Source: Candidatus Saccharimonadota bacterium (lineage in GTDB: Bacteria > Patescibacteriota > Saccharimonadia > Saccharimonadales > JAXHMH01). From it: a stretch of 64,000 nucleotides of DNA. The notes under the pieces are model-generated. The model was not told the origin of the DNA. It saw only the letters and a list, made by a program, of their open reading frames with translations, and did no database searches. Shown here piece after piece: positions 16,601 through 61,533 of the stretch. Numbering within the stretch: position 1 is the stretch's first letter; each line of letters starts with the position of its first letter. The stretch spans positions 152,379-216,378 of the forward strand of contig JAXHMH010000002.1 of assembly GCA_034521515.1 (NCBI GenBank). Reading direction: 5' to 3'. A program made the position numbers and the translations under genes.

Positions 16601-19385
16601 TGTCCTGGGCGCCTATGACTACATTTGCACCGAATGTGTCACCACCTTGACTGATGTTGCCACTGGTATCTGTCACACAATCTAGCCAGGCACCGTTTTC
16701 GTAGCAACGGAAGGTGTTGGACGTGGTGTCGTAGTACATAGCACCGTTGACGCCGGTTGGGGAAGAAGAGTCAGAGCCAAGCACAAGGGCAGTGCCAGAA
16801 CCAAGAGATATGCGGTTATTAGTAGTGTTAGCGGTCAAGAGATTGGTAGTACCTGCGGCGTTTTGGATTTGGAAGGCAGTTGTAGAGTCTGTTTGGTTCT
16901 GGAATAGAGCCTGGCCTGTGACATCTAAGCCGGCATCTATAGTAACGGATGAGCCTGATTGGCTTATCATTGAATCTATTATGGTGTTGTTGTCATCAAA
17001 CACTGGGATAGTGCCGGCCGTGCCTGCATCTTCCACCCAAGAAATATGGATACTGCCATCACCTTCATTGCCTACCGAAGCCGTACCTCCAGCTGGCATA
17101 AGCGATGAGCCACCACCGCCAGCACCACCGCCACCGCAGCACGTTCCCGTACCCCCACCGGCGCCGCCGCCGTAATAGCCGCCGCCGCCGCCGCCGCCAG
17201 AATAGTAGTGATTAACAGCGTCACCACCCTGACCAAGGCTACCCGAACCGCCATCACCGCCACCGGCACCTCCGGCAGACTGCGTGCCGCCGCTACCACC
17301 AGGTTCACCACCTGCAGTTTGGCCATCATAACCATTGATGTCACCGCCATCACCGCCCAGTTTAGTACCATACGAACCACGACCGCCACCACCGCCAGCG
17401 ACCACCACACGATCTGTTAGGTCAGTCCCTCCTCGTCGTATGTCTGATGCGCCACCACCGCCACCACCGGCAGAAAGAGCACCACCAGCTGAACTACCAC
17501 CACCGTTCCAACCACCGTCTTTTACATCCGAACTACCCCCTTGTTCTCCAACATACATGTAGATTGTTTCCCCGGGAGTGACCTCGATAGTGCTAGTGAT
17601 AATTGCACCTGTACCACCGTTACTTGTAGCACCAGCAGCTCCCCTAACGTCCACGAACAATTCTGTTATACCCGCTGGTACGACAAACGGCTGTCCGTAT
17701 TTTTCGTGCTCAAAGGTTTGACTACCAGCCTCTCCCGGAGTTAATACAAATGTACCTGTCGTGTTGGGGAGTAAGTAGGCTTGATCCGCAGTCAATGTAG
17801 CCGATTGTATGGTCGCGCCGTAATTACTATAGCTACCGTCACCCAGCGTCAACAGGCCTTGCGTAACTGTGCCGCTGCTGGCGATCCTGCCTAGTGTCAA
17901 CCGTGCACCTGTTTCATTAAACGACGCGTTGACATTACCGTTGCTATCTTGCAGTTGTAATAAATCGGCGGTTTGTCCTGATGTGCCCTGAACAAGCAAA
18001 CCAGTATTGGCGCTTCCGCCTGTGGCAAGCGCGGTCTGAGCCGAGCTGTCAGCAGTGGAAAGCGTGTTTACACTGAGCGTGTTTGCCGGAGCAACGTTAT
18101 TTATGCCTACCTGCCCGGTGTTTGAGACGGTCATACGGATGGTGTCGTTTGTCTTGAAATTAACGTCACCGTCATTAACGGTACCGAGTACCATGGCAAC
18201 GCTGCCGCCAAGATCATTGCCACCTTGCAATATATCGCCGTAGCCTGCGGTACCCCCGATACAGTTGCCGGCAAACGTACAGACATTGTCACCGCTTTGC
18301 TGCAAGGTGCCGGTAAAGTTGGCCGTGGTGGCGTCATACAGTGCCACGTTCGAGCTTAGTCTGGCATCGGCCAGGGTGCCGGTGGTGATGTTGTCGGCGT
18401 TGAGGTTAGTAAGGAGTGAGCCGTCGCCGCTGAAGCTACCGGCGATGATGGTGCCGGTAAGGTTGATGTGGCCGGTTTGGGCGGTACCAGGAGTGGTACT
18501 TTGTAGCTCCACAAAGTCACCACCGCTGCCTCCCCCGTCATTAGCACAGAGTAAGACTCCAGAACTGTTGGTGGTTAGCTTACCGCCATTGTCGTAGGTG
18601 GAGCAGTCGAAGTCTTGCAGGGTGATGGAAGTGCCGTTAATAAGCAGGGTGTCGGCGGCGTCGTTGCCGAGGATGGTGTTACCGTTGACGGTTAGGTTGC
18701 CGCCTACAGTGGTGTTGTTGGTGACGTTCAGAGCCGTACCACTCGCACTGAGGGTGAGTTGGCCGGTGAAGGTTTGGTCACCTTGCAGTAAGGCTATGGT
18801 ACCACTGGCATCAGGTAGCAGGATTGATGGGTCGTTGGTGATGGAGCTGAAGTTGAGGGTGCCGCGGTTGGTGCCGTCGTCTTGGTTGAGTTGGCCGGCA
18901 CTGAGGGCGTGGGGTATGGCGGTTAGTTTGATTCTGGGAGTCATCTCACCATCCCAGGTGGGAGAGCCAGTACCGCCAATGTTCATACTGAGCCACAGGT
19001 CTTGATCCCAGTTGATATCTGGCAGGCTGGTGACGGAACCCAGGTTGACGCTGAAGTAGCCGTTGCGGACGGTGACTTGGTCAGTGCTGGTGCGGGTTTC
19101 GCGCCAAGCACAGCTGCCGGAACAGCTGCCTTGGGCGCCACCAGTGTTGGTGGCATGGTCGTGTAGTTTGAATTCTAGGTTGTAGGTACCGTCAGGCACT
19201 ATGTTGCCGGTACTGTTGTACAGACGGGCTTGGAAGTTGAGGTATTCACTGGTGGCGGCAGAGGTGGATTGCAGGGGTGGAATTAGGATAGACCAAACAA
19301 ACAAAAACAGCACAAACAATAGCCCTGATAGCCAGAGCTTGGCTGTGTTGAAAGGTAGGCGGTGTGACCGCTGTTTTTGGAACAT
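10638..19385 (-). CDS. Giant multidomain surface protein, paralogue C (about 2915 aa from the proposed start; the ORF extends to 19532)
   Basis: The start is placed at ATG 19385 (MFQKQRSHRLPF..) because the paralogues start at the equivalent point after the same CA-rich leader. Domain map, N to C, approximate nt: TM anchor LWLSGLLFVLFLFVWSILIPPL; shared N-terminal module (19.25-18.85 kb); fibre repeats; Gly-rich domain GAAG..GGWNGGG..GGGGGGASDIRRGGT..RVVVAGGGGG (17.70-17.04 kb); 7 x 52-aa SBBP-like blades (16.33-15.24 kb); Ser/Thr/Pro linker; MAM domain FESGFGNW..DDFDWSRNSGGTGSSGTGP..DMALDAVVV (14.60-14.14 kb); 7+7 blades W.SVTYGNG.FVAV..GTNRVMTSPDGETW (13.73-11.80 kb); four GW repeats (11.59-11.23 kb); C-terminal beta-sandwich. 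Confidence 0.9.
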   Translation of the reverse strand: MFQKQRSHRLPFNTAKLWLSGLLFVLFLFVWSILIPPLQSTSAATSEYLNFQARLYNSTGNIVPDGTYNLEFKLHDHATNTGGAQGSCSGSCAWRETRTSTDQVTVRNGYFSVNLGSVTSLPDINWDQDLWLSMNIGGTGSPTWDGEMTPRIKLTAIPHALSAGQLNQDDGTNRGTLNFSSITNDPSILLPDASGTIALLQGDQTFTGQLTLSASGTALNVTNNTTVGGNLTVNGNTILGNDAADTLLINGTSITLQDFDCSTYDNGGKLTTNSSGVLLCANDGGGSGGDFVELQSTTPGTAQTGHINLTGTIIAGSFSGDGSLLTNLNADNITTGTLADARLSSNVALYDATTANFTGTLQQSGDNVCTFAGNCIGGTAGYGDILQGGNDLGGSVAMVLGTVNDGDVNFKTNDTIRMTVSNTGQVGINNVAPANTLSVNTLSTADSSAQTALATGGSANTGLLVQGTSGQTADLLQLQDSNGNVNASFNETGARLTLGRIASSGTVTQGLLTLGDGSYSNYGATIQSATLTADQAYLLPNTTGTFVLTPGEAGSQTFEHEKYGQPFVVPAGITELFVDVRGAAGATSNGGTGAIITSTIEVTPGETIYMYVGEQGGSSDVKDGGWNGGGSSAGGALSAGGGGGGASDIRRGGTDLTDRVVVAGGGGGRGSYGTKLGGDGGDINGYDGQTAGGEPGGSGGTQSAGGAGGGDGGSGSLGQGGDAVNHYYSGGGGGGGYYGGGAGGGTGTCCGGGGAGGGGSSLMPAGGTASVGNEGDGSIHISWVEDAGTAGTIPVFDDNNTIIDSMISQSGSSVTIDAGLDVTGQALFQNQTDSTTAFQIQNAAGTTNLLTANTTNNRISLGSGTALVLGSDSSSPTGVNGAMYYDTTSNTFRCYENGAWLDCVTDTSGNISQGGDTFGANVVIGAQDNYGVELLANNQTVLSLSNTGQALFQNTSNSTTAFQIQNAAGTSILTADTTNQRIGIGTNTPTDKLTIINTDQNQNALRINQTVATTTFMLATGDTTDDRFHSVIQTSDGGYLAAGRTDSFGAGGLDGYMVKYDDSGSIEWSRTAGDTGVDYFEHVIQASDGGYLAVGSTDSFGAGSNDAYIIKYDDSGAIEWSRTAGGTGLDYFYSAIQTTDGGYLAAGSTISFGASNYNAYLVKYDSSGTIEWSRTAGDTQHDQFFSVIQTDDGGYLAAGETESFGAGADDAYLVKYDSSGTIEWSRTAGDTGNDRFLEVIQTSDGGYLAAGRTDSFGAGGNDAYLVKYDSSGTIEWSRTAGDTGFDALYSVVQADDGSYLAAGYTDSFGAGNQSGYLIKYDDSGSIEWSRTAGGTANDRFYSVAKTDDDGYIAGGYTNSYGAGTADAYLAKYDAAGNITGCTSECTSPTSTANSPTSSTSSPASTANSPTSSTSSPASTANSPTSTVTNIVATDTSTTTVDALTVNAQGDTVLHGNLLPGTDNTYSLGSSTARWQDLFVGPGSLHIGTAGNEGVISYDTTENNLVLGSSSGGVNIQNTTNSPTAFQIQNASGVNLFNQDTVDQELSLFNNNLTVNASSNFNVTETTQPEWETGTLTNTDAVGGSVNLAVNSYGAPAIEDSESFESGFGNWTNVSGDDFDWSRNSGGTGSSGTGPTAAYDGSWYIYTESSGSNYPTQTALIEYTMDSHGGGSVDFNYNMYDNTTMELSLESYNGVSWSEQWSVIGDQGTDVWNSANVSFPAGTTKIRFKGVTGSSFDSDMALDAVVVNTNQPIYESTGSWTSETYDLSGVDIASGSTVTWVDTVPANTTLELEARVSVDGGVSWGSGWQSLTSGGSLPGITNGIDLSDGQLQVRANLSTSDTSVTPLLHQLDVLVNSYGEGKGSVGIGGRNSSVRLNVDATGFTYGSGGETWTTHASTEVNFWNSVTYGNGIYVAVSSDGTNRVMTSPDGETWTAHAAAEQNFWRSVTYGNDQFVAVANSGTNRVMTSPDGETWTAQTAAEQNSWQSVTYGNNQFVAVSYDGTNRVMTSLDGETWTAQTAAEANSWRSVTYANNQFVAVAANGTNRVMTSPDGETWTAQTAAEANSWRSVTYANNQFVAVAANGTNRVMTSPDGKTWTAQTAAEQNSWQSVTYGNNQFVAVSYDGTNRVMTSPDGETWTAHAPPELHFWQSVTYGNGTFVAVSSKGKTMVSSAEGKALHIQGSSEFNGNNRFKGSNTIAATSKNALIVQDASNVPLLSADTSAMNVGVGGINTSNSKLLVQGVPVDKTNWTLHTAAEQNYWESVTYGNGTFVAVADNGTNRVMTSPDGETWTAHAAAEANGWQSVTYGNGTFVAVADNGTNRVMTSPDGETWTAQTAAEQNSWGSVTYGNNQFVAVSSDGTNRVMTSPDGETWTAQTAAEQNSWGSVSYGNGRFVAVAYNGIMVSTDGVSWTDNTPSDLPLVNKITYGNGVFVALRSGYNHPYALVSSDGVNWEQSQAIFSYMMDFSSITYGGGKFVAVSRWDANFVTSLDGINWSYEYVDDLAWNEWKSITYGNNKFVAVAKDGDDRVAVKEVVHGDALKVAGHSNFTGNITVSGSISIGSGDQSVISYDEDKQELQSTTTIHAPKFTGGELDVSPTSDGEHHYVWSAATGWINLEPGTIYDVRVYPDHLEGMAWGETTGWISFGTYTGGGEHTYLNTDETDYGVNRNPATGELSGFAWNTSTGWINFDPTDGGVTHDPDTGEYTGYAWSENYGWISFNGIADDTTEYTPRAGLGSRSVKSGVTGRATLTPEYPGVTITADGSSNLGTMTSDFCSGSALRSTNLGVCADANDEHSYYSWTTDQGTAQDYDIYVRHQMPSNFDGFISNDTIKMYGWRSTVNDSVELALFGADGTQCGSTTNAATADGSWTLTALNANEKDCNIAAGDVVVFRVRLTATDGNYARVGDISFQYRARY
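11225..11590 (-). repeat. Coding GW repeats (4 units: YVWSAATGWINL, GMAWGETTGWISF, GFAWNTSTGWINF, GYAWSENYGWISF)
   Basis: Read from the ORF translation. An almost identical block occurs in the decayed paralogue at about 50475-50895. Confidence 0.7.
11800..13735 (-). repeat. Two arrays of seven 41-aa (123-bp) Asp-box-like blades (W.SVTYGNG.FVAV...GTNRVMTSPDGETWTA..AAE.N.), separated by a fibre segment at about 12.65-12.88 kb
   Basis: Seven units counted in each array from the translation. The adjacent units 13119-13241 and 13242-13364 are identical apart from one base seen by eye (ctgggct vs ctaggct). Confidence 0.8.
15111..15224 (-). repeat. 42-bp tandem repeat (about 2.7 copies) encoding the Ser/Thr/Pro linker ..STANSPTSSTSSPA..
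   Basis: On the plus strand, ggaRgttggggagttggcggtggatgctggggagctggtgct is repeated head to tail (units at 15111, 15153 and a partial one at 15195). Confidence 0.85.
15240..16335 (-). repeat. Seven 52-aa (156-bp) SBBP-like beta-propeller repeats (D.F..VIQT.DGGYLAAG.TDSFGAG..DAYLVKYD.SG.IEWSRTAG.TG.)
   Basis: Seven units counted in the translation. The motif resembles the Pfam SBBP (seven-bladed beta-propeller) repeat, recalled from memory. Confidence 0.7.
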
Positions 19386-19711
19386 TTGTTTTTGTTTTGT
19401 TTTTGATCTACACGTTTTTTGTATTTTTGTTTTGGTAGATCTAGGGTTTAGTATGGCGGAATCTGGGTTGTATGACAAGAGGTATTCAAGGGAAAGCAAA
19501 GTCAGGTCTACGACAGCCGACAGACAGTGCAAATATACTGGTTCTTTGTGACATTATAGTTGTGATTTTTACATCCTTAGTTTCCAGATAACGGGGTTAA
19601 ACTGCAGGTTTAAATTAGTGTAGTAGCAAATATAAGATGACATGATATGGATGGGGTCGGTAGCACGCAAACAATGCACTAGCGCCCAAAATTGAACACA
19701 TAATGTATAAG

Positions 19712-42667: not shown

Positions 42668-42865
42668 TTAGGCGGCTTTTTTGGTTCGGCGGCTTATACG
42701 ACCACCCTTTGCGCCAGCCAATCGGGCTAGATCACGGTCGGCATAAAAGCCACCAGTTTTGCCTTTTTTACCGCCTGCGGCACCGATTTTTGCATAAAAA
42801 TCTGCACCGTATTTAGTCTTGTTAGTTGTTGCGGCTGCTTGACCACCTGCTTTAGTTCCTGCCAT
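42668..42865 (-). CDS. Small KGG-repeat/YciG-like stress-induced protein (65 aa)
   Basis: MAGTKAGGQAAATTNKTKYGADFYAKIGAAGGKKGKTGGFYADRDLARLAGAKGGRISRR.. preceded by AAGGAG 7 nt upstream. The longer ORF-track version (to 43090) lacks an RBS and has an implausible N-terminus. Confidence 0.7.
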   Translation of the reverse strand: MAGTKAGGQAAATTNKTKYGADFYAKIGAAGGKKGKTGGFYADRDLARLAGAKGGRISRRTKKAA

Positions 42866-43132
42866 TTTTTGCTCCTTCTCGTGCGCGCTTATGTGGACGG
42901 CACATCTTGGGCGTAAACTTCCGGTTCGTGGCGCCACCGTACCAAAAAGTACGCTTCTGCTCCGATCCTCAGTCTCCATCCCAAGCTGCCCTCGCCCACA
43001 AAACCGCTTCACAGTGGTTAATGGTTGATTTATAATTGTCTCCCTCACTTGTGAGGCTCCCGAGAGAAATAAAAAGAGTCCGCCCGCCAAACATATGGTG
43101 GATGAACCCTCTTATCCCTATCGAATGCGCTT

Positions 43133-43188: not shown

Positions 43189-43222
43189 GACTAAACGCGC
43201 CAGTCGAGTGGCGCGTTTAGTC
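43189..43222. repeat. REP-like palindrome type 1, copy 1 (GACTAAACGCGCCA-gtcgag-TGGCGCGTTTAGTC)
   Basis: 14-bp perfect stem. The core TAAACGCGCCAGTCGAGTGGCGCGTTTA recurs at 54775-54802 with one base difference. Confidence 0.85.
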
Positions 43223-43277
43223 AGATATGTCCTTTTTTACTACACAGAGGGATATAGCCTTATCCCGATTATTTCTT

Positions 43278-43977
43278 GCAAAGGTCTGACCTTTGCGAGT
43301 GTTATGTGTCCGCTAGTAAAACTTTTATGCTTTCTAGTTGATGTTTGTGGTCTTCGTAATCCTCAATAAAGTTTTCGTAACTTTCAGTGCCGTCAAAAAG
43401 TTCTAAGATACGTCCTGGCTTCACCCAATCACTACGCCATCCGTTAATGTAATATGGTAAACTCGAGAATTCCCAACTTTTATATGATTCAGGATTAAGG
43501 TGTATGTATCGCGAGATGTGTAAAAGGTATGCATCTTCAAGAATATGAGAAGCCTTATAAACACCTTGGAGCAAATGCCCTACTCTAACGTGCCGCTTAT
43601 TGAAGTATGTTGTATATGAGCTCGTCACTTTTTGCATCATTTTAGCTATAGCTTTTGGATCGGAGTTTAGGTAAAACAACAGGTGGAAATGATTTGGCAT
43701 CAAGCAAAACGCTAACAGCTCAACCCTTTCAGCGTAGCTTTCGTATATATTTCCGCGATCGTCTTTGTGCTCTTCTGGGCTAAGATAACGCTTTAGCAAA
43801 TTCAGAAATACTGCGTAATCTTGATCGTCTATAAAAATATTCCGCTTCTCTACGCCACGGTTGTAAACATGATAAAAAGACTGTTCTACGTACTGCTTTA
43901 CAGCATTCTTCGATGGCATACGTGTAATATACTTGATTCCTACCCCTCTTGCAAAGGTCAGACCTTTGCAAGAGGGG
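43278..43977 (-). mobile_element. RAYT/IS200-like unit: Y1 transposase gene flanked by inverted copies of a type 2 palindrome
   Basis: GCAAAGGTC-t-GACCTTTGC at 43278-43296 lies 6 nt past the stop. CCCCTCTTGCAAAGGTC-a-GACCTTTGCAAGAGGGG at 43943-43977 lies 24 nt upstream of the start. The central t/a difference shows the two copies are mutually inverted. Confidence 0.75.
43302..43919 (-). CDS. REP-associated tyrosine transposase (RAYT) / IS200-like HUH Y1 transposase, 205 aa
   Basis: YHVYNRGVEKRNIFIDDQDYAVFLNLL.., HUH motif in LMPNHFHLLF, and catalytic Tyr context ISRYIHLNP. Confidence 0.85.
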   Translation of the reverse strand: MPSKNAVKQYVEQSFYHVYNRGVEKRNIFIDDQDYAVFLNLLKRYLSPEEHKDDRGNIYESYAERVELLAFCLMPNHFHLLFYLNSDPKAIAKMMQKVTSSYTTYFNKRHVRVGHLLQGVYKASHILEDAYLLHISRYIHLNPESYKSWEFSSLPYYINGWRSDWVKPGRILELFDGTESYENFIEDYEDHKHQLESIKVLLADT

Positions 43978-45864
43978 TAAGGGTTGCTCGGTAGTAGGTT
44001 TTGTTTGCTTTTACTGCTGTTAACAACAGTGTGAGGGGTTAGTTGGTGGTGGTTATGGTGATGTAGTCAAAACGGTAGGTTTTGTTAGGTTCAAGAGGGG
44101 TGTTGGAACCGACTTTAAAGCCGTCGGCTGTGCGTTCTATGTACAGATCTAGCCCGGTACTACCGGCACCTACCGGCATAAGATTGACCCGTGGTATGGC
44201 GTCATCTACCGATTCTGCAAAGAGTACTTTTGCAAGTATTCCCTTCTCTATCTCAACGCCCTCGTTAGTCGTAAAGGTAATTGTTCCGGCCATGTCAGTA
44301 CCCTCTAGATCGACAGAGCCCTTATCGCCCTGCAGTACCCCACCAAGCTCTATAGCTGGTGTCTCGGTTGTGTGGCTGAGTATACGTCCGCCAACGGTTA
44401 GGTTGCTGGTAACGGTGGCGGTTTTAACGGTAAGATTGTTCTCTACCGTTAGGTTGCCTTGGACGGTGGCGTTGCCAGTGACGGTTAGATTAGAGATGAC
44501 GGCTGGGCCAGATACGTTGAGCATCGGCACGCTCAGGGCGTTGCCTTGTAGGTCGCTTACGTCGGTGTCTTGTATGCCTGGTAGGTAGGTTTCTGGTTGC
44601 ATGAACAGTTCAATGGTGCCAATCTCGGTTGGGTCAGTGTTGGTGTAATCTTCCAGAGCATAACCGATGATACGGGTGGCGCTGGTGGCTTTGCGGCCAA
44701 CACCAGGGTGCTCTAGGCTAATGGTTATAGGATCGCCTGCCTTGATGTTGCCGTTCTCGGTGGTGACTTTAACTGGCACACGACCAGCCAGTGCCACCTC
44801 TACTGAATGAGGCGCGTCAGCAAGATCCGGGTTATCTTTCCAGCCCAGGACAAATCCAGGGTCTGTAGAGACAACTCCCATAAGTGGTGCACTGCCGTCA
44901 GCAACCGTTGTATAACGGCTATGGTTAGTATCTGCTGATACGATAGTACCTGGCTCAATCATTTCTGTGGCGCCGTAGAGTTCTGCAATATCAAAGGCGT
45001 TGGCGGTAATTGAACCGTCTGCACGGATTGTACCAGCCGCAGTACTGCAGTCGTCCGCACTGTCGTCACTGACACAGAGCCCGCCCTGCACTTCTAGCGT
45101 GGTGTCGGCACTGGCAGTACCAATACCGACGTAGCCGGTTAAATTATTCACATGCAGTAGTGAGCTCATATTTAGCTCGTGTATTTCTATCTCATCTAAG
45201 GCCATGTCACCTGTAAAGCTAGAGCCTCGGATACCTACAAAGCGGATATCAACAACACCAGAGAGTTCGGATAGGTCTACTGTCTCCTCAAACCACTCAT
45301 CGCCCTGGTCACCACTCATTGACCACTGTTCTTCCCACAGACCGCCGTCTTCCGAGGTTTCTAGACGGAGTTCACCCATACTCGCCCCGTACATATGATA
45401 GTAGAAGCTAATATCAAAGCCGTCAGGATACAAGCTGGTATCAATATTACTGGCGTAGTCAAGAATGGCTTGATCGTCTTGTGCAACTGGATCTGAAGTT
45501 TCGTAGTAAACATACCAGCTCGTGCCGTCCGCGCCACTCGACGGGCCGGTACCAGAGCTTGTTGTGGTGCCACTATTACGTGTCCAGTCCTGGTCATCAC
45601 CGGCAGCGTTCACCCAATCATCAAAACTGGCCTCAAAAGTAGAGTTGCTAATAGTGCTTGCGACAAGCCGGTCAGCTACGTTTAATCCGCCTAACACATC
45701 AAGCTTAGACTGCGGGTTAGCCACACCGATGCCGACGTTGCCGCTATTTGGTTGTAGTAGCAGGTTTTGACCGGACTGGATCTTTGGAACTTCTAGCATG
45801 CCTTGGATGGAAGCGTTAGTAACAACATTCGCAGTCGAGTCAGGTCTGTCTGGTTGTCGAGGAA

Positions 45865-50170: not shown

Positions 50171-53100
50171 CCATACGTAAAGCTTGTTGCATCTACGTTT
50201 AATCGTGCTATCGGATTATTGCTGCCAATCCCAACACTCATATTCTGAGTATCGGCAGTAAACAGGCTGGAACCAGAAGTATTTTGAATCTGGAAAGCTT
50301 CTGTGGTATCAGTGCCGTTCTGAATCACTACACCGCCGGTTGTACTCCCTAATACAAGGTTGTTGGTCTGGTTATCAAAGTGCATGGTGCCGTAGTTAGT
50401 GCTGTCTGTGCCTACCTTGATGGTGGATGAGGCTTCGAGGACACCGGTCTTAACACTGCGGCTACCCAGGCCAGCTCGTGGGGTGTACTCAGTCGTGTCA
50501 TCGGCTATGCCGTTAAAGCTGACCCAGCCGTAGTTCTCGCTCCAGGCGTAGCCGGTGTATTCACCGGTGTCTGGGTCGTGAGTGACACCACCGTCGGTTG
50601 GGTCCAGGTTAATCCAACCAGTAGCGGTGTTCCAGGCAAAGCCGGATAGTTCACCGGTGGTTGGGTTACGGTTGACACCGTAGTCTGTTTCATCTGTGTT
50701 GGCGTAGGTGTGCTCACCGCCTCCTGTGTATGTACCAAAGCTAATCCAGCCGGTGGTTTCGCCCCAGGCCATGCCTTCTAGGTGGTCTGGGTAGACGCGG
50801 ACGTCATACATCGTGCCAGGCTCTAGGTTAATCCAGCCAGTTGCAGCACTCCAGACGTAGTGATGTTCGCCGTCTGAGGTTGGGGAGACGTCTACTTCCC
50901 CACCAGTGAACTTTGGTGCGTGAACGGTTGTGGTGACTCTGCACCTCTTCTTTGGTGGTGTCGTAGCCGAGGGTAGGCGTCGTTGCCATGACTGTGCCAA
51001 TGTTGCATGGAGTTTGGCACGGACGTAGACGTCTTGCCGACGGTTGGTGCTCGGAGCCAAGGTCGTAGGTGTCATCCGCGCTTGGTCGTAGGATTAGAGT
51101 TAATACCGGCGTTTACTGTCAGTGTGTTAGATGAGTTGGTGCCAAGTACCGTATTACCGTCTACGTCTACGTTGGTAGTAAAGCTGCCTCCGGCCGGTTA
51201 CATCAAGATCACCGCCGGCTAGAATAAGATCGTTGCTGGTGTCTAGGGTAAGTGTGCCGGTGCCTTGGAGGAGTGTGGAGTCAACCACGTTCTGAGCAGC
51301 GTCGAACATAGCTAGACGGTTGGCGGTGCCAAGAGCCGGTGACTAGGCTACCACCGTCACTCGAAGTCACCCGTAGTTATTTGTGTGCCGTTAACCCGGT
51401 AGACGCCGGTTGTGTTTACATCTCCGTCGACATCCAGGGTGTATTGTGGGCTGATGACTGGAGCCATGGTCGACTCTGAGGTGTGGGCGTTGGTGGTGCC
51501 GACTCGCATCGTAGACTGTGGGGCGTGCTGGTGCCGAACTGGTGGTGTACCAGGGGAGTACCAGCGTGAGGCGCCGTCAACTGGTGGTACCGGGCCGACT
51601 TAGCTGCATTGGTGGGGAGATGGAGCCGTTTGAGCGTCGTTGGAGCCGGATCGTTATAGCGGACAGCTGACTGCTGGTGCCATGATGGTAGCAGTCGGCA
51701 GCATCAGCCATCAGGCGAGCCTGCACGCCTGCGGCGTTTTGGATTTGGAAGGCGGTGGTGGAGTTGGAGGGTGTCGAGTAGGGCTTCGCCGGTATTCAAC
51801 GGCTTAAGACTGTATGGTCTGTGGCGAGGAGTTCTAGCCGTAATTGTCCTGGGCGCTGTGACTCGTTTGCACCGAATGTGTCACCACCTTGACTGATGTT
51901 GCCACTGGTATCTGTGACACAATCTAGCCAGGCACCGTTTTCGTAGCAACGGAAGGTGTTGGACGTGGTATCGTAGTACGTGGCGCCGTTGACGCCGGTT
52001 GGGAGAAGAGTCAGAACCAAGCACAAGGGCAGTGCCAAACAATCGATATACGATTATTAGTGGTGTTAGCGGTAAGAGATTGGTAGTACCTGCGGCGTTT
52101 TGGATTTGGAAGGCAGTTGTAGAGTCTGTTTGGTTCTGGAATAGAGCTTGGCCGGCGACATCTAAGCCAGCATCTATAGCAACGGTTGAACCTGATTGGC
52201 TTATCAATGAGTCTATAACGGTGTTGTTATCATCAAACACTGGGATAGTGCCGGCAGTACCTGTGCCTACTGCCCAAGAAACATGAATACTGCCATCGCC
52301 CTCATTTCCTACCTCCACACCCATACCGGCGGGTACAAGCGATGACCCGCCGCCACCGCCGCCGCCACTATAAGTGCTTCCACCAGAGTCACCGGCACCG
52401 CCACCGTAATAACCGCCGCCACCGCCGCCACCGGCTGTATAACTAGTACATGTTGGGCAAGCATCGCCACCTACACCAAGTACACCATCTTCGCCATCGC
52501 CGTTGCCGGCACCACCTTCAGTTTGCGTACCTCCCTCGCCAGGATAACCACCATTCTGGCCAGCTTGTCCATTATGGTCACCGCCATGTCCGCCGTATTT
52601 ATTACCGTACCAGCCACTACCGCCGCCGCCGCCACCAGCAACCACGATACGATCGGTTAAGCCCGTACCTCCGCGACGTATATCGGTTGCACCACCACCG
52701 CCACCGCCAGTACGAAAATCGCTGTAACTATCTCCTCCACCGTTCCAGCCACCTGTAGGCGTACCTCCCGCGCCTCCTACGTAAAAATACAACGTCTCTC
52801 CTGGCGTAACATCCATGGTGCCAGATACAATTGCACCATCGCCGCCTCCAGTACCACTTTCAGCTGATACACCCCCTTCAGCACCTCGTAATTCAACAAA
52901 AATCTCGGTAACGCCAGCTGGTACGGTAAACTGTTGCATAGCCGACACGGACTCAAAAGTTTGACTACCAGCCTCTCCCGGAGTTAATACAAACGTACCT
53001 GTCGTATTGGGTAGTAAGTATGCCTGATCTGCAGTCAATGTAGCCGATTGTATGGTCGCACCGTTATTACTGAACCCGTCACCCAGCGTCAACAGGCCTT

Positions 53101-54629
53101 GCGTAACTGTGCCACTACTAGCAATTCTACCTAGTGTCAACCGTGCACCTGTTTCATTAAACGACGCGTTGACATTGCCGTCGCTATCTTGCAGCTGTAA
53201 TAAATCGGCGGTTTGTCCTGATGTGCCCTGCACAAGCAGGCCAGTATTGGTGCTTCCGCCTGTGGCAAGCGCGGTCTGAGCCGAGCTGTCAGCAGTGGAA
53301 AGCGTGTTTACACTGAGCGTGTTTGCCGGAGCAACGTTATTTATGCCTACCTGCCCGGTGTTTGAGACGGTCATACGGATGGTGTCGTTCGTCTTGATAT
53401 TCACATCACCGTCATTAACGGTACCGAGTACCATGGCAACGCTGCCGCCAAGATCATTGCCCCCTTGCAATATATCGCCGTAGCCTGCGGTGCCCCCTAT
53501 ACAATTGCCGGCAAACGTACAGACATTGTCACCGCTTTGCTGCAAGGTGCCGGTAAAGTTGGCCGTGGTGGCGTCATACAGTGCCACGTTCGAGCTTAGT
53601 CTGGCATCGGCCAGGGTGCCGGTGGTGATGTTTGTCGCGTGAAGGTCGGTCAGGCCGGAGCCGTCGCCCTCAAAGCTGCCGGCAATGATGGTGCCGGTGA
53701 GGTTGATGTGGCCGGTTTGGGGAGTGCCTGGAGTGGAGGCTTGTAGTAAAGCAAGCGTCCCACTGGCATCAGGTAGCAGAATTGATGGGTCGTTGGTGAT
53801 GGAGCTGAAGTTGAGGCTGCCGCGGTTGGTGCCGTCGTCTTGGTTGAGCTGGCCGGCACTTAGGGCGTGGGGTATGGCGGTTAGTTTGATTCTGGGGGTC
53901 ATCTCACCATCCCAGGTGGGAGAGCCAGTACCGCCGATGTTCATACTGAGCCATAGGTCTTGGTCCCAGTTGATGTCTGGCAGGCTGGTGACGGAACCCA
54001 GGTTGACGCTGAAGTAGCCGTTTCTAACCGTGACTTGGTCAGTGCTGGTGCGGGTTTCGCGCCAGGCACAGCTGCCGGAACAGCTGCCTTGGGCGCCACC
54101 AGTGTTGGTGGCATGATCGTGTAGTTTGAATTCTAGGTTGTAGGTGCCGTCAGGGACTATGTTGCCGGCACTGTTGTACAGACGGGCTTGGAAGTTGAGG
54201 TATTCACTAGTGGCGGCAGAGGTGGATTGCAGGGGTGGAATTAGGATTGACCAAACAAACAAAAACAGCACAAACAATAGCCCTGAGAGCCAGAGCTTGG
54301 CTGTGTTGAAAGGTAGGCGGTGTGACCGCTGTTTTTGGAACATTTGTTTTTGTTTTTTGGTTTGTTTTGGTTTTTTGTTTAAAAACCGTGACTTCATTAT
54401 CCTTCACTTAACAGATAGTATCAAGGGTGAATGTACACATAATTAACTCAATTATAAATCAATTATTTTTATCAAATTAATATAATTATATGTTGTTATT
54501 AGTACTACTACATCGACCTTTCTTACCTGTTTTTGTATAAAATATACTGTACGTATAATTGTTTTTATATATAAAATATTGATGTATTTATAACTACTAC
54601 ACTATAATTTCATAGAATTATTGTAATGG

Positions 54630-54689: not shown

Positions 54690-54730
54690 CTAACCCGACT
54701 GACAAGGTCAAACCTTGTCAGTCGGGTTAG
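54690..54730. repeat. REP-like palindrome (CTAACCCGACTGACAAGGT-caa-ACCTTGTCAGTCGGGTTAG), related to type 2 through its AAGGT/ACCTT core
   Basis: 19-bp perfect stem read directly. Confidence 0.8.
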
Positions 54731-54774: not shown

Positions 54775-54802
54775 TAAACGCGCCAGTCGACTGGCGCGTT
54801 TA
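54775..54802. repeat. REP-like palindrome type 1, copy 2 (TAAACGCGCCAGTC|GACTGGCGCGTTTA)
   Basis: Perfect 28-bp palindrome, identical to 43192-43219 except for one central base. Confidence 0.85.
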
Positions 54803-55066: not shown

Positions 55067-55081
55067 CAAGGTCTGACCTTG
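55067..55081. repeat. Short type 2-like palindrome CAAGGTC-t-GACCTTG
   Basis: Read directly. It shares the AAGGTCnGACCTT core with 43278-43296 and 43951-43969. Confidence 0.6.
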
Positions 55082-55131
55082 TCAGTAGATACGATCATTT
55101 TCCTTCCGGGAAAATAGCACGGTCCGCAAAG

Positions 55132-55162
55132 AAAAAAGACCTCCTGTTCGGAGGTCTTTTTT
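55132..55162. terminator. Bidirectional terminator-like hairpin (A6-GACCTCC-tgttc-GGAGGTC-T6)
   Basis: Stems at 55138-55144 and 55150-55156, flanked by A and T runs. Confidence 0.65.
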
Positions 55163-55257
55163 ATAATTTGGCGCCCCAAGGTCAAGCCTAAAGTTTTAGG
55201 CTTGACCGGCTATTTTCGATTATTTTCTTCTTGGGAAAATAGCACGGCGCATATGCC

Positions 55258-55291
55258 TTTAAAAGAGAAAAGCCATCCTATTCGGATGGCT
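55258..55291 (-). terminator. Rho-independent terminator immediately after 5S rRNA
   Basis: The minus strand reads AAGCCATCC-gaata-GGATGGCTT followed by TTCTCTTTT. Confidence 0.8.
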
Positions 55292-55301
55292 TATTCTATA
55301 A

Positions 55302-55413
55302 TTTGGCGCCGTGCTATTTTCCCAGGGGTGAACCCCAAGTATTGTAACCGCTGCGAGGCTTAACTGCTGTGTTCGGCATGGGAACAGGTGTCTCCCTCGC
55401 GCTATGGGCACCA
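55302..55413 (-). rRNA. rrf: 5S ribosomal RNA (about 112 nt)
   Basis: The minus strand reads TTGGTGCCCATAGCGCGAGGGAGACACCTGTTCCCATGCCGAACACAGCAGTTAAGCC..GGGAAAATAGCACGGCGCCAA. It has the conserved CCCATGCCGAAC..GTTAAGC core, and helix I pairs the two ends. Confidence 0.93.
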
Positions 55414-56330: not shown

Positions 56331-57133
56331 CGTGTACATCTTAAGGTGTTCATGTCTTAAGACTTATCCTCCATTACTGAAGGCACGGACTATATCTTCA
56401 CCCTTCTTTATGTATTAAAGTTAGGGGCTGACGTATTATAGGTCACTGGTTGTGAGTCCTATCTCTCTGTCTGGTCTAGTGACAGATCAGTCTCTACGGG
56501 GACAAGTAAGCCACGCTCCTGCAAAAAAGTGATGACTTGTGCGTATCCGTTAGTGCGTTTCTTTGAATAGTTAAATGTAGCGGTCTTATCGACCAGCTCA
56601 CTTAACCGCACCAACCTTCTGGCGGTCATTTTTCGTTGCTCGGGATGTTGTTTGATTAATCTCAAGACATCTCTAGCGAGCACTTTTTTGAGTCGAAGAA
56701 AGGGATACAGAAGCAACAATACATGTTCTACTTCTCTTAAGCCGACTATGGTGTATTCGCTCATCCCGTCAGGGCGTCGGCGAACATATCCGTAGCCTAG
56801 CTGCTCCTTCAGCCAAAGGAGAAAATCTTGATGGTTTGTTTTCTGGTAGAAAACAACACTAACTCTAATCTGAAAACCCAATCGATAATCCTTGCGGCTT
56901 ATCAATTGCGCCATAATTGAGCCATCTCCATCTAAGAATCCAGCTATGTAGGCCTTTTCTTCATCTTGCATGGTCATTACTGTCTTCCCTCGGTATTGCC
57001 CTCTGGATCGTTCGTTTATCCAGGTGGGGTTTCACCGATATTAGTCAGATTTAGTGTTTTTTTCGCTATAAAGCGAAGATGCGATGTACATCAACACATT
57101 ACCACTTTTCAGTGGTAGAACGCAATGTAATTT
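56331..57133 (-). mobile_element. Group I intron (about 803 nt) in 23S inserted after the U2593 equivalent (the I-CreI-type site)
   Basis: The conserved exon GGGTTCAGAACGT ends at 57134 and resumes as CGTGAGACAGTTCGG at 56330. The 5' exon ends in U and the insert ends in G, as expected for group I. The insert contains a LAGLIDADG ORF. Confidence 0.8.
56459..56977 (-). CDS. Single-motif LAGLIDADG homing endonuclease (I-CreI-like), 172 aa, intron-encoded
   Basis: KAYIAGFLDGDGSIMAQL.., size and context. This is the only convincing ORF within the rRNA genes. Confidence 0.88.
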   Translation of the reverse strand: MTMQDEEKAYIAGFLDGDGSIMAQLISRKDYRLGFQIRVSVVFYQKTNHQDFLLWLKEQLGYGYVRRRPDGMSEYTIVGLREVEHVLLLLYPFLRLKKVLARDVLRLIKQHPEQRKMTARRLVRLSELVDKTATFNYSKKRTNGYAQVITFLQERGLLVPVETDLSLDQTER

Positions 57134-57141
57134 ACGTTCTG

Positions 57142-57188
<47 letters not shown>

Positions 57189-57202
57189 AAGATGCTCCAC
57201 CT

Positions 57203-57237
<35 letters not shown>

Positions 57238-57269
57238 AGCGCCGTCTATGTGAACTATTGGGCGCTATA

Positions 57270-57301
<32 letters not shown>

Positions 57302-57519
57302 GTGCGTCGTCGATCCCACGTTCATGTACAAATGTACGTACGACGGGTCACTAGCTCCCACTTTCGTGTCTGTTTGGCTCGTAGGCCTCACAGTCAAGCT
57401 GGCTTATGCGCTTGCACTATCAGTTCGATTTCCATCCGAACTTAGCCAACCTTTGAACGCCTCCGCTACTCTTTAGGAGGCAACCGCCCCAGTTAAACTA
57501 CCCACCAGACACTGTTCCC

Positions 57520-57650
57520 GAACCGGAAATTACCAACAATTTCCGGTTCAGTTAACGGCTGACAGTATACAGACAACAGTCTTTAAACTGTTTACTGTTA
57601 ACCATCTACTGTTAACCTGCGGAAAATTGTTAACAATTTTCGGCTCAGGT
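57520..57650 (-). other. ~130-nt insertion in 23S domain V built from hairpins
   Basis: AACCGGAAATTaccaacAATTTCCGGTT and CGGAAAATTGTTAACAATTTTCGG hairpins lie between conserved GAAATACCACCC and GGAACAGTGTCTGGTGGGTAGTTT. Confidence 0.6.
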
Positions 57651-57769
57651 GAGTACAAGATCGTAACAAGGGTGGTATTTCACCGGTGGCTCCACCTACG
57701 CTAGCGCGTAGGCTTCAAAGCCTCCCACCTATCCTACACATGTTACGACCCGGCACAATGTCAAGCTGT

Positions 57770-57801
<32 letters not shown>

Positions 57802-58771
57802 GCGGACAGACGGCATCTTTACCGTCAATGCACTTTCACCGAGCTCTTCGTCGAGACAGTGCCCAAATCATTACTCCATTCGTGCGGGTCAGAACTTACC
57901 TGACAAGGAATTTCGCTACCTTAGGACGGTTATAGTTACCGCCGCCGTTCACTGGGGCTTCAGTTCGCACCGTGAAGCGCTCCCCTTAACCTTCCAGCAC
58001 CGGGCAGGAGTCAGCCCCTATACATCCACTTTCGTGTTAGCAGAGACCTGTGTTTTTGGTAAACAGTTGCTTGGGCTCCTTAGCTGCGGCCCCGTCACAC
58101 TATCTACCACGATAGTGCCCTTTTGTAGGGGTCAGCTTCCTTCTGATTTGTTTGTCTCGAGTATTACTCGTTTATACAGGTCCTTGCAAGAAGTTAAAAA
58201 CTTGCATGAACTACTGTTTTGATCTCGTTTTCAAAAGAAAACTGGCTTTACATGTCACACGTGATAAACACTGTGACGGGGCAGACCTTATCCCGAAGTT
58301 ACGGTCGCTGTATTGCCGAGTTCCTTGACGAAGATTCACTCGTACGCCTTGGTCTTCTCGACCTGAGCACCTGTGTCGGTTTGCGGTACGGATAGCCATG
58401 CACATAAGTTTGGAAGCTTTTCTGGTCAGCACTCTCACAAGAATCAGCCTGTTAAGGCCTCTCATTCGTGGTTGTTACGCCACTTAGACGGGTATAACCA
58501 TGAACCCGCTCCTGCTAACATGCCGCGCACTCCAAACAATACAAGACTAGTACGGGAATATTAACCCGTTGTCCATCGCCTACGCTACGCGCCTCGGCTT
58601 AGGACCGACTAACCCTGGGACGATTACCGTGGCCCAGGAAACCTTGCTCTTTCGGCGGGCAGGATTCTCACCTGCCTTATGGTTACTCATTCCAACATTC
58701 TCACTTGATACCGCTCCACCAGACCTTACGATCTAACTTCAGCGCAATATCAACGCTCCTCTACCGCTCGC

Positions 58772-58901
58772 GCGATGCGCAAGAAACTCCAGAAACCAAA
58801 AACCAAAATTCAGAGAAAGACCAAAAATCAAAGATTTGAAAATTGAAGTTGAGACTTATCTGAAATTTGAAGTTTGAGGTTTGAAATTTCTTGCGCATCG
58901 C
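58772..58901 (-). other. 130-nt IVS-like hairpin in 23S (helix-45-like site) closed by 15-bp perfect inverted repeats
   Basis: GCGATGCGCAAGAAA (58772-58786) and TTTCTTGCGCATCGC (58887-58901). The interior consists of CAAA/TTTG-rich complementary arms. Confidence 0.7.
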
Positions 58902-59518
58902 ACAAGCCCATATCTTCGGTGCTATGCTTTAGCCCCGTTACATTTTCCGCGCGAGATCTCTTGACGAGTGAGCTGTTACGCACTCTTTAAATGAATGGCT
59001 GCTTCTAAGCCAACATCCTCGTTGTTTAAGAAATCTCACCTCGTTTCCCACTTAGCATAGACTTGGGGACCTTAGATGATGGTCTGGGCTGTTTCCCTTT
59101 CGAGCGCCGAGCTTAGCCCCGGCGTTCTGACTGCTGTAGTTCCACTGATGGTATTCGTAGTTTGTCAAGGGTGGGTACGATCACTCGCCCCAGTCCGAAA
59201 CAGAGCTCTACCCCCATCAGCTACCGTACAACGCTAGCCCTAAAGCTATTTCGAGGAGAACCAGCTATCTCCAGGTTCGATTGGCATTTCACCGCTAACC
59301 ACAGGTCATCCGAGCATGTTGCAATATGCGACGGTTCGGTCCTCCACGTAGTTTTACCCACGCTTCAACCTGCCCATGGTTAGGTCACCTGGTTTCGGGT
59401 CTACTCCGCATAACTAAATCGGCCTATTCAGCCTCGCTTTCACTACGCCTCCGTCAAATGACTTAGGCTTGCTATGCAGAGTAACTCGTTGGATCGTTCT
59501 ACAAAAAGCACGCCGTCA

Positions 59519-59602
59519 CCCTGCAGTAGACTTTCGATCAGTTTTGCTACGCAAAACCGTATCCATTCGCAAAGCGAATGGCATCGAAAGCTCACTGCAG
59601 GG
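59519..59602 (-). other. ~84-nt extension of the helix-25-equivalent hairpin of 23S
   Basis: CCCTGCAGT (59519-59527) and ACTGCAGGG (59594-59602) close an extra hairpin where E. coli has a short helix (GGGAGCACGCTTAGGCGTGTGACTGCG). Confidence 0.55.
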
Positions 59603-59665
59603 CTCCGACTCCTTGTACGCACACAATTTCAGGTTCTATTTCACTCCCCTTCCGGGGTTCTTTTA

Positions 59666-59696
<31 letters not shown>

Positions 59697-59789
59697 ATCG
59701 TAAGATATATTTAGCCTTGGGACGTGGTCGTCCCGGATTCAGTCAGGGTTTCACGTGTCCCGACCTACTCGACATACGGCTCGCGCTTT

Positions 59790-59878
59790 GCACGAGCAAG
59801 TTAAAAGCCGAAAGTTAAAAGTTAAAAGCCCTAAGACTTTATACTTTAAAACTTTATATACTTTTCACTCGCTTGTGC
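59790..59878 (-). repeat. AU-rich hairpin insertion, family 2, in 23S domain I
   Basis: gcacgagcaagttaaaagccgaaagttaaaagttaaaagccctaagactttatactttaaaactttatatacttttcactcgcttgtgc. It is homologous to the spacer element 55429-55490 and lies just 5' of the conserved ..GAGTAGGTCGGGACACGTG. Confidence 0.65.
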
Positions 59879-60134
59879 TCCGCACAAGCCCTACAAATAT
59901 AAGGTTAGCGAGACTTGGCATACCGGGCTTTCACCGTCTCTGGCGGAACTTTCCAATTCCTTCTGCTCGCCTCGCTAATTTCTGACCTTATGCAGACTAA
60001 TGGTAGCGTCTGCAGCCTTATGCAAAGACTGAATAAATTCAGTTCCTGCAAAAGGTTGTTTGTAGTGTCACAACCCCCATTATGCATTAGCCTACCAGCC
60101 TTACCGGCTGCATCTCGCTTCGCTCGAGCTAATG

Positions 60135-60209
60135 CAATAGATGATAGTTGATAGATGATAGTTGATAACAAATGTCATTAACTATTAACTATTTTCCTAT
60201 TAACTATTG
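60135..60209 (-). repeat. AU-rich hairpin insertion, family 1, in 23S domain I
   Basis: caatagatgatagttgatagatgatagttgataacaaatgtcattaactattaactattttcctattaactattg. The ends CAATAG../..CTATTG are complementary. It is homologous to the 16S insertion at 63829-63904. Confidence 0.7.
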
Positions 60210-61141
60210 CTCTAGCTTGTCGAACAAAGTGAGACACAGCTGGAGCATAAAAGGTTTGGGCTCTTCCGCGTTCGCTCGCCACTACTAACGGAATCGTTGT
60301 TTACTTTCTCTTCCTCGAGGTACTAAGATGTTTCAGTTCCCCCGCTTACCGCCATATAGCCTATGAATTCAACTATAGGTGACTAGACATGACTCTAGCC
60401 GGGTTTCCCCATTCGGAAATCTTCGGTTCAAAGCTTAGTCAGCAGCTCCCCGAAGCTTATCGCAGCTCCTCGCGTCCTTCATCGGTATCTTACGTCAAGG
60501 CATCCTTTGTGTGCGCTTGTGTAACTTTTTACGATTCCACAACTTGTAACACTTTAGCCTACCGTCCAGCAAAGCTGGCCGCACTGCTAAAGCTCTTGAG
60601 GTATTGCTTTGTCAGAAACTGTGCTACTCCTTCACCGTATTAATATACGGCACAGTCCGTTGCTTGTTTCTTCCGTGCACTGCACTCAAGTACGAAGTTA
60701 TGGGTCATTAAGTGCAATCCTTCTTCGCTTCCAAAGGAAGCTACGAAGGACCGTTCATAGCCTAAAAGGCGACGAACGGTTGACTAGTTGTTGGTAATTA
60801 CCAACTACTCACAACTTCGCATCGCGCTGACTGCTCGCCAGCAGAGCTGCCGATCTGTCATCACTTTTGGCGCATCACTGCGTCAGTTACTCCGATACTC
60901 GCTCACCGTACTATTAGTACGACTCGCTCCGTTTCTCATAACTTCCTTGTGCTGCATCCAAATGCAATAGTTGTGTTGCCGTTTGCCTTATTTCTCATTT
61001 CTTTACATCAGATTGTTAAGATACAAACTCAAGACATCCCCACTGTAAGAATATATCTTGCTGCGTATAGAACTTGAGTTTACGTTTCTGGCTTGGCGGT
61101 TTAGACGTCAAACAAATGACCTAAACTCAAGCAGCCAGAAC

Positions 61142-61291: not shown

Positions 61292-61368
61292 GGGGCAATA
61301 GCTCAGTTGGCTAGAGCACCTGCTTTGCAAGCAGGGGGTCCGGGGTTCGAGTCCCCGTTGCTCCACCA
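61292..61368 (+). tRNA. tRNA-Ala (anticodon UGC), CCA encoded
   Basis: GGGGCAATAGCTCAGTTGGCTAGAGCACCTGCTTTGCAAGCAGGGGGTCCGGGGTTCGAGTCCCCGTTGCTCCACCA. It has the G3:U70 pair, anticodon loop tTTGCAa and GTTCGAGTC T-loop. Confidence 0.95.
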
Positions 61369-61456: not shown

Positions 61457-61533
61457 GGGGCTATAGCTCAGTTGGTTAGAGCGCGTCACTGATAATGACG
61501 AGGTCGATGGTTCGAGTCCACCTAGCCCCACCA
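61457..61533 (+). tRNA. tRNA-Ile (anticodon GAU), CCA encoded
   Basis: GGGGCTATAGCTCAGTTGGTTAGAGCGCGTCACTGATAATGACGAGGTCGATGGTTCGAGTCCACCTAGCCCCACCA. Confidence 0.95.

Follow-up and report, generated by a model that had tools for sequence, protein, structure and literature searches.

What is a HUH/Y1 protein doing between two copies of one DNA hairpin in an ultra-small bacterium of the candidate phyla radiation (CPR)? The question is raised by a 64-kb stretch of contig JAXHMH010000002.1 from a Candidatus Saccharimonadota bacterium, referred to here in its full length as the window, in which an open reading frame (ORF) of 205 amino acids is bracketed by closely related palindromes. The ORF most probably represents a domesticated, single-copy HUH/Y1 single-stranded DNA endonuclease of the kind known as REP-associated tyrosine transposases (RAYT, or TnpA-REP, where REP denotes repetitive extragenic palindromes), residing in a REPtron-like locus with the cognate hairpin TTGCAAAGGTC-N-GACCTTTGCAA. 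The features of the window on which this reading rests are the following.

43302-43919, minus strand: gene for the predicted RAYT-type HUH/Y1 endonuclease, a 205-aa ORF with NHFHLL and RYIHLNP
43941-43979, no strand assigned: upstream cognate hairpin, centred 41 nt ahead of the ATG and built around TTGCAAAGGTC-N-GACCTTTGCAA
43275-43299, no strand assigned: downstream cognate hairpin, CTTGCAAAGGTC T GACCTTTGCGAG, beginning 3 nt past the stop codon
43926-43954, minus strand: promoter-like site found by a consensus scan, with a -35 box TTGCAA, a 17-nt spacer and a -10 box TATATT

The protein and its closest structural relative

The initial annotation had called the 205-aa ORF a RAYT-type HUH/Y1 protein from its NHFHLL and RYIHLNP motifs. 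Both motifs are present as described, and evidence from Pfam, from profile searches and from the predicted fold leads in each case to TnpA-REP. The HUH motif corresponds to H77-F78-H79 (NHFH, residues 76-79) and the catalytic Tyr138 lies within RYIHLNP, so that the Y motif takes the form Y-x3-NP; NHFH and RYIHLNP are invariant in an alignment of 26 homologues (alignment A1). Further motifs are GHLFQG, which contains FQ, and a tail with an invariant S152-S153. The Pfam domain Y1_Tnp is matched at 33.7 bits, above its cut-off of 23, and no other Pfam domain was reported. A search of PDB sequences with the single protein sequence returned noise only. The profile built from alignment A1 found E. 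coli TnpA-REP (4ER8) as its best match among PDB sequences, placing HMH opposite HFH and YIYINP opposite YIHLNP. An AlphaFold2 model computed from the same alignment has a mean pLDDT of 89.4, and Foldseek ranks 4er8_A first among PDB structures (E = 3.6e-7; TM score 0.58 query-normalised and 0.71 target-normalised), followed by the IS608, ISDra2 and IS200 transposases.

The protein belongs to a large family. More than 7,900 proteins (clustered at 90%) match it at E < 1e-3, the named ones coming from Saccharibacteria and Parcubacteria with lengths near 204 aa, and among representatives at 50% identity 192 match at E < 1e-30 and 6,812 at E < 1e-10. The gene occurs once in the window and once per locus among the fetched homologue loci. 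Of the homologue ORFs, 80 can be read through to a stop codon, every one of them intact and 196-244 aa long, and 3 more run off their contigs.

A hairpin on either side of the gene

The cognate palindromes that had been reported to flank the Y1 gene, at 43278-43296 and 43951-43969, were confirmed. The upstream palindrome, GCAAAGGTCAGACCTTTGC (43951-43969), forms the centre of a hairpin with perfect arms of 19 nt (43941-43959 and 43961-43979) that folds as single-stranded DNA with a dG of -21.5 kcal/mol (z = -9.4); the stem is thus extended, as originally noted, and its arms measure 19 nt rather than the 17 bp given at the time. The downstream palindrome, GCAAAGGTCTGACCTTTGC (43278-43296), lies inside the full hairpin at 43275-43299. 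Sequences matching AAGGTCNGACCTT with at most one mismatch number 5 in the 64 kb, against 0.15 expected, and the window's hairpins and 28-bp palindromes (see below) fold stably as single-stranded DNA (z from -5 to -11 against shuffles), with the exception of the short member at 55067-55081 (z = -2.4). The 'inverted' status of the near-perfect flanking palindromes depends only on the central base, which on the gene strand is T upstream and A downstream, and on one arm mismatch.

The -35 box of the promoter-like site sits in the gene-proximal arm of the upstream hairpin, and the ATG follows 6 nt past the -10 box, a spacing that would imply a leaderless mRNA; the promoter-like site thus suggests, as a prediction, that the Y1 transcript is leaderless. 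The same geometry is readable in the window and in two related loci introduced below, L003 and L001, with spacers of 16-17 nt and the ATG 6-8 nt after the -10 box. With the hairpin supplying the -35 box, binding of the hairpin would probably autoregulate expression of the gene. Rfam searches of both intergenic regions at permissive thresholds yielded sub-threshold matches only, driven by the hairpins.

The arrangement is retained in relatives. The closest on record, L003, carries an orthologue with 83% protein and 76% DNA identity, flanked on both sides by the identical palindrome with the same central-base polarity. It has kept the neighbouring genes for a ROK kinase, a zinc-finger protein, a KGG-repeat protein and a surface-protein C-terminus, and the remaining intergenic sequence has diverged from that of the window. 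L001 (Saccharimonadales; 61% protein identity) carries variants of the palindrome on both flanks, upstream as an inverted doublet (CTGCAAAGGTCAGACCTCCGC, 25 nt, GCGGAGGTCTGACCTTTGCA) and downstream as CTGCAAAGGTCTGACCTTCGCAG. In the window, the Y1 gene has as neighbours the genes for a KGG-repeat protein and a surface protein; the surface-protein domain upstream of it is found also in L001 and in a further locus, L026, and the chromosomal position of the Y1 gene is conserved in four Saccharibacteria loci.

Recurrence of the association across the CPR

A scripted scan of 80 homologue loci from metagenomes, with 35-58% protein identity, extended the comparison. Nearly every gene surveyed has a hairpin 25-80 nt before its start codon and a matching one 5-80 nt after its stop. 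Flank-sharing was scored strictly outside the ORF, in the 68 loci with both flanks available, and required the 200-nt stretches before and after the gene to have 13 or more consecutive nucleotides in common. Such a match is present in 49 of the loci (72%), as compared with 8 of 375 neighbouring ORFs and 5 of 576 intervals drawn at random from these contigs (1-2%). The description of the locus as a classical RAYT/REP arrangement is borne out by this recurrence and by the palindrome flanking the orthologue in L003 and L001.

Thirty lineage-specific hairpin units of 27 nt could be aligned without gaps (alignment A3). The only invariant columns are G10 G11 and C17 C18, a GG-N5-CC signature in the stem, and 8 of the 10 stem pairs vary on both sides in a compensatory manner, giving variants such as AAAGG/CCTTT, CAGGG/CCCTG, GAGG/CCTC and ATAGG/CCTAT. 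Covariation scores 0.707, as compared with 0.19 for shuffled and at most 0.16 for slid controls. The informative results of this alignment are the invariant GG/CC and the diversity of the remaining positions.

Copies inside and away from the gene

At about half of the homologue loci, the ORF itself contains in-frame copies of the palindrome belonging to that locus. They occupy sites equivalent to window residues ~50-55 (before HUH) and ~145-148 (directly after HLNP), both of which are loops in the AlphaFold2 model, and occasionally a third site across the ORF 3' end. The window's own Y1 gene holds no internal copy. A striking case is a 238-aa homologue, L017 (807-1523, minus strand), from a metagenome-assembled contig labelled Bdellovibrionales with a G+C of 33%, which has 3 in-frame copies of the Saccharibacteria palindrome TTGCAAAGGTCNGACCTTTGCA, encoding CKGPTFA.

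Three further members of the hairpin family are dispersed in the window.

54690-54730, no strand assigned: long, diverged member, located between the 5S rRNA gene and gene D, with CAAGGT-CAA-ACCTTG as its core
55067-55081, no strand assigned: short member, CAAGGTCTGACCTTG, with a weak fold when taken alone (z = -2.4)
10535-10561, no strand assigned: member CCTTTGCAAGGT TAG ACCTTGCAAAGG, just inside the predicted 5' end of the ORF 5067-10634 or in its leader

The first two had been pointed out before and are present; the long one folds with a dG of -24.3 kcal/mol (z = -11.4). The third is an addition to the earlier list. As a side observation, it falls among the 35 opening codons of the ORF predicted at 5067-10634, where it would encode TFARSNLAKG. 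Up to the first hydrophobic helix, at ~residue 95, the predicted product is basic and low in complexity; translation may therefore begin farther downstream, and the hairpin may lie outside the gene.

Dispersal was counted with locus-specific cores, distant copies being those more than 300 nt from the gene. A first count gave 13 core matches at ~8 sites in 415 kb; with shorter cores, 248 kb yielded 7 distant copies where 0.63 would be expected, a significant excess, and 3 of the 7 lie in the window. The density of distant copies is about 1 per 35-50 kb, from which handfuls to tens would be expected per genome of 0.7-1 Mb. An exact-match scan with GCAAAGGTCNGACCTTTGC of 185,579 species-representative genomes, a set that does not include the source genome, returned 21 stretches only. 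The L001 genome has 3 perfect copies on other contigs, all intergenic, one of which adjoins the compensatory variant CTGCAGAGGTCAGACCTCTGCAG. Scans of viral contigs for the hairpin palindrome and for the 28-bp palindrome found neither. The hairpin family thus spreads, but sparsely.

A probable RAYT-type locus and the points that weigh against it

By this account, the RAYT/REPtron-type system extends to a CPR-wide family in a non-canonical form, with no GTAG guide, a low copy number and motifs like those of TnpA-Y1 subclass 2.1 (see below). By analogy with E. coli TnpA-REP and IS608 TnpA, the Y1 protein would bind the hairpin extruded on single-stranded DNA and would cut and rejoin the DNA beside it through a 5'-phosphotyrosine on Tyr138, with a metal held by His77 and His79; occasionally, hairpins would be copied to new sites, mostly near the gene. 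Where the upstream hairpin gives the Y1 promoter its -35 box, the same binding would probably regulate the gene's own expression.

A bolder proposal, which is offered only tentatively, sees here an ancient, vertically inherited CPR lineage of RAYTs that recognizes GG-N5-CC in the stem rather than a GTAG guide, keeps no more than a handful of copies, mostly at its own gene, and continually re-homogenises the flank and in-ORF copies, near-identical within a genome and different between genomes, by its own cutting and joining, in a form of concerted evolution. If true, the locus would be a self-maintaining 'copy-and-replace' hairpin system in streamlined genomes, autoregulated via a hairpin that overlaps its promoter.

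Several points weigh against the assignment to a RAYT in a REPtron-like locus. The NCBIfam model REP_Tyr_transpos, the RAYT equivalog, scores 42.4 bits, under its cut-off of 80, and the endonuclease activity of the 205-aa protein is itself predicted by analogy. The two flanking copies face in opposite directions at roughly half of the loci and in the same direction at the others, and doublets hold both orientations; the mutual inversion that had been noted for the window is seen, by the central base, there and in L003. No base outside the stem is conserved among the 30 lineage units, and there is no GT[AG]G guide at the hairpin foot; without a conserved foot tetranucleotide, these are not canonical GT[AG]G REPs. 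Stem pairing in alignment A3 reaches 91%, a value that is partly built in, since the units were picked as palindromes. Divergence of the protein and of the hairpin is not significantly correlated (Spearman -0.08; 303 of 2,000 permutations as extreme). L017 is only 36% identical in protein and yet has the same palindrome as the window, a sharing that may reflect horizontal transfer, mis-binning or convergence. Finally, distant copies are very few, with none within 5-10 kb at 13 of the 18 long loci, and so low a number speaks against large-scale REP proliferation.

Alternative explanations

It is very improbable that the palindromes are ordinary regulatory or transcript-end elements (operators, terminators or mRNA stabilisers) that are incidental to Y1 chemistry. 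Perfect palindromes are typical of operators; the -35 box overlaps the upstream copy, and the downstream copy lies 3 nt past the stop codon, where it could stabilise the mRNA as hairpins after genes can, an effect established for E. coli REP sequences. However, neither flanking hairpin is followed by a T-run, and a matching pair occurs in 72% of loci across very distant lineages and not at neighbouring genes. The stem sequence, moreover, is lineage-specific with GG-N5-CC held constant, and in-frame copies in the ORF cannot be terminators or operators.

An active insertion sequence (IS) of the IS200/IS605 type, transposing as a whole and with the two hairpins as its left- and right-end recognition structures, is likewise very improbable. 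Hairpins near both ends are a hallmark of this family. Here, too, subterminal hairpins lie on both sides of a Y1 gene whose product shares the fold of IS608 and ISDra2 TnpA, and the copies are direct in about half of the loci, as at the ends of IS608. Against this stand the single copy in the window and in each locus, the intactness of every ORF that reaches its stop, and the 35-65% identity between genomes with no near-identical copies among them. The position of the gene is also conserved in four Saccharibacteria loci, the hairpins occur alone and inside the ORF as well, and the Y motif reads Y-x3-NP where IS200 transposases have Y-x3-Q (PMC6006769 Table 1).

The 28-bp palindromes and the repetitive block between them

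A second type of palindrome, TAAACGCGCCAGTCGA(G/C)TGGCGCGTTTA, had been reported twice in the window, and both copies are in place.

43192-43219, no strand assigned: 28-bp palindrome, copy 1, TAAACGCGCCAGTCGAGTGGCGCGTTTA, 55 nt from the downstream RAYT hairpin
54775-54802, no strand assigned: 28-bp palindrome, copy 2, perfect, 44 nt from the hairpin 54690-54730, in an order that mirrors copy 1

These two copies, 11.6 kb apart, are identical at 27 of 28 positions, where none would be expected by chance, and the palindrome is absent from all other fetched loci. Each forms with its hairpin a composite module, and the two modules mirror each other. Their spacers are only weakly similar (a CCCGAYT stretch), too little to prove a common composite unit, which was rejected as a conclusion from the aligned modules; the 28-bp palindrome may nonetheless be part of a composite module resembling the bacterial interspersed mosaic elements (BIMEs). 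The KGG gene promoter has its -35 box ~30 nt downstream of copy 1.

Gene D (51881-54397) is homologous to a giant gene at 10638-19532. The homology ends at 54356, 330-420 bp short of the 54690-54730 hairpin and the 28-bp palindrome, and further ends of homology to the giant gene fall near 48454 or 45869, not at palindromes. The flanks of the giant gene have no comparable palindrome, nor does the syntenic spacer between the RAYT and KGG genes in L003. The raised G+C content at 44-54.4 kb, 0.54-0.57, is similar to the 0.52 of the giant gene, and a foreign origin of this block was rejected on that ground.

The block has a structure of its own. Between 44039 and 54397 lies a series of ORF fragments with paralogy to the giant gene, which encodes 2964 aa. 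The block includes a 617-nt stretch (53740-54356) that is 95.6% identical to 18782-19398 at the giant gene's 5' end, together with tandem repeats of 135 and 123 nt. Its appearance is that of a cassette store or of a surface-protein gene duplicate in decay, and the region is repeat-rich and plausibly recombination-prone regardless of the palindromes.

The least probable of the readings is that the 28-bp palindromes are recombination boundaries or the ends of a mobile or duplicated 11.6-kb segment (the RAYT gene, surface-protein fragments and D), for although the near-identity of the copies, the mirror-image modules with the 28-bp palindromes outermost and 44-55 nt from a family hairpin, and the highly repetitive content between them would suit such a unit, the paralogy ends elsewhere, the giant gene is bordered by no palindrome, L003 keeps the RAYT-KGG synteny without one, no other fetched locus or viral contig has it, the block has the G+C of the giant gene family, and any two copies in permissive intergenic DNA, here the only two visible, would 'enclose' something. 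The 28-bp pair does not delimit a demonstrable mobile segment, and the suggestion that D arrived or was duplicated within a unit so bounded was not sustained: the paralogy stops at 54356, the related locus L003 lacks the palindrome between its RAYT and KGG genes, and the base composition is ordinary for the family.

Neighbouring genes and the rRNA region

The window ORF at 42668-43090, of 140 aa, has probably been drawn too long: the conserved KGG-repeat protein within it has 65 aa, starting from 42865 (MAGTKAGG...) and matching a 65-aa gene in L003, and a good promoter-like site for the KGG gene lies at 43161-43133. In L003, an insertion sequence with an rve integrase (866-1955) separates the RAYT gene from the KGG gene, and half of the RAYT palindrome, ACCTTTGCAAC, recurs in each of its inverted ends, which may be derived from the hairpin, imitate it or use it as a target. 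That the palindromes might be remnants of abutted IS ends was considered and rejected as a general explanation, as no rve homologue exists in the window and the palindromes follow the Y1 gene from lineage to lineage.

Observations were also made in the rRNA region. Both ARAGORN and Rfam place tRNA-Ala(TGC) (61292-61368) and tRNA-Ile(GAT) (61457-61533) on the plus strand, between 16S and 23S genes that are both on the minus strand, so these spacer tRNAs appear antisense to the rRNA genes. The 23S rRNA match (57065-60531) spans 3467 nt against a model of 2925 positions, which points to one or more insertions totalling ~540 nt, and a 178-aa ORF (57686-58222) lies on the strand opposite to the 23S gene. 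Just downstream of the 5S gene, a module is duplicated with ~74% identity (55092-55175 and 55217-55310), each copy consisting of GGGAAAATAGCACGG, complementary to the 5S 3' end, followed by a terminator-like hairpin that differs between the copies and by ATAATTTGGCGCC.

Significance for CPR genomes

To our knowledge, work on RAYTs and REPs has so far dealt almost wholly with Proteobacteria and Cyanobacteria, in which REPs reach hundreds of copies. The ultra-small CPR genomes add a large RAYT family in which the association is conserved and the hairpin population is minimal, a combination that fits some function apart from the proliferation of repeats. The enzyme might instead regulate its own expression, process DNA locally or maintain hairpins, those within its own reading frame included. 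With dozens of lineage-specific hairpins and a single GG-N5-CC, the family provides a comparative data set for how a Y1 nuclease reads a hairpin, as well as a compact set of candidate sequence-programmable single-strand DNA nucleases. For the annotation of CPR genomes, it may also serve as a marker of recombination-permissive intergenic DNA.

The initial annotation had remarked that RAYT/REP systems were not known as a described feature of CPR genomes. Full-text literature searches pairing RAYT terms with CPR names found nothing relevant, which agrees with that remark, and the CPR is mentioned neither by Quentin et al. 2018 (PMC6006769) nor by Bertels et al. 2017 (PMC5581495). Some JGI annotations call homologues 'REP element-mobilizing transposase RayT', so a label for the protein already exists in databases; as far as these searches went, the hairpin system in the CPR is undescribed.

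Comparison with known systems

Palindromes that are tolerated in frame within coding sequence call to mind the Rickettsia palindromic elements, repeats of 100-150 bp, short and palindromic, that insert in frame into coding genes without destroying them. We know of no Y1 nuclease partner for these elements and of no concentration of them at a single gene. The TnpA proteins of the IS200/IS605 family (IS608, ISDra2) share the fold of the 205-aa protein and recognize imperfect end hairpins on single-stranded DNA. Unlike the present system, members of this family (subclass 1.1) have Y-x3-Q, are multi-copy and mobile and often carry tnpB, features none of which was seen at this locus.

TnpA-Y1 proteins have been split into 12 subclasses, and subclasses 2.6 and 3 are noted there for 'atypical secondary structures' (Quentin et al. 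2018, PMC6006769). In-frame insertions of REPs in the tnpA-REP gene, between HUH and Y and additional to the flanking copies, were described as unique to subclass 2.4 (PMC6006769), which corresponds to Bertels Group 4 and is found in Cyanobacteria and Bacteroidetes. The CPR homologues resemble this subclass in that about half of them have in-frame copies inside the gene. They differ in the position of these copies (~55 and ~145, with none in the window gene), in their motifs (FQ and YIHLNP, as opposed to WQ and YIxNNP) and in their hairpins, which in subclass 2.4 are long or of a 'double foot' type with GT[AG]G.

By motif, the closest subclass is 2.1, equivalent to Bertels Group 1 and to the TIRYT of De Nocera et al., whose signature is NH[YF]H / FQ / Y[IV]HLNP with an SS tail (PMC6006769 Table 1); compared by motif only, the NHFH, FQ, YIHLNP and SS proximal tail of the 205-aa protein match it exactly. 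Subclass 2.1 genes are reported to have no REP-like sequences nearby and to carry instead terminal inverted repeats with GGGG[AT][CG]A[CG], and their products have a distal helix-turn-helix (HTH) domain (Bac_DnaA_C, HTH_23 or HTH_28) and a median length of 238 aa (PMC6006769). In contrast, the protein described here has 205 aa, only Y1_Tnp detected and no distal HTH, and palindromes flank its gene. For Groups 1 and 4, the flanking 16-mers are only modestly repeated (Bertels et al. 2017, PMC5581495).

E. coli TnpA-REP (RAYT, YafM; 4ER8) is a member of subclass 2.2 (PMC6006769). It is only ~13% identical to the CPR protein, with DHLH and WE in place of NHFH and FQ, and the CPR protein has an extra C-terminal helical tail of ~60 aa. 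Its hairpins have GG-N5-CC in the stem and no 5' GT[AG]G guide, unlike E. coli REPs, and handfuls to tens of copies are expected per genome as opposed to hundreds. E. coli TnpA-REP is the best structural match, likewise a single-copy HUH/Y1 protein with Y-x3-NP, and in the REPtron of E. coli, as in the locus described here, the gene is bracketed by cognate palindromes of which further copies lie elsewhere in the genome.

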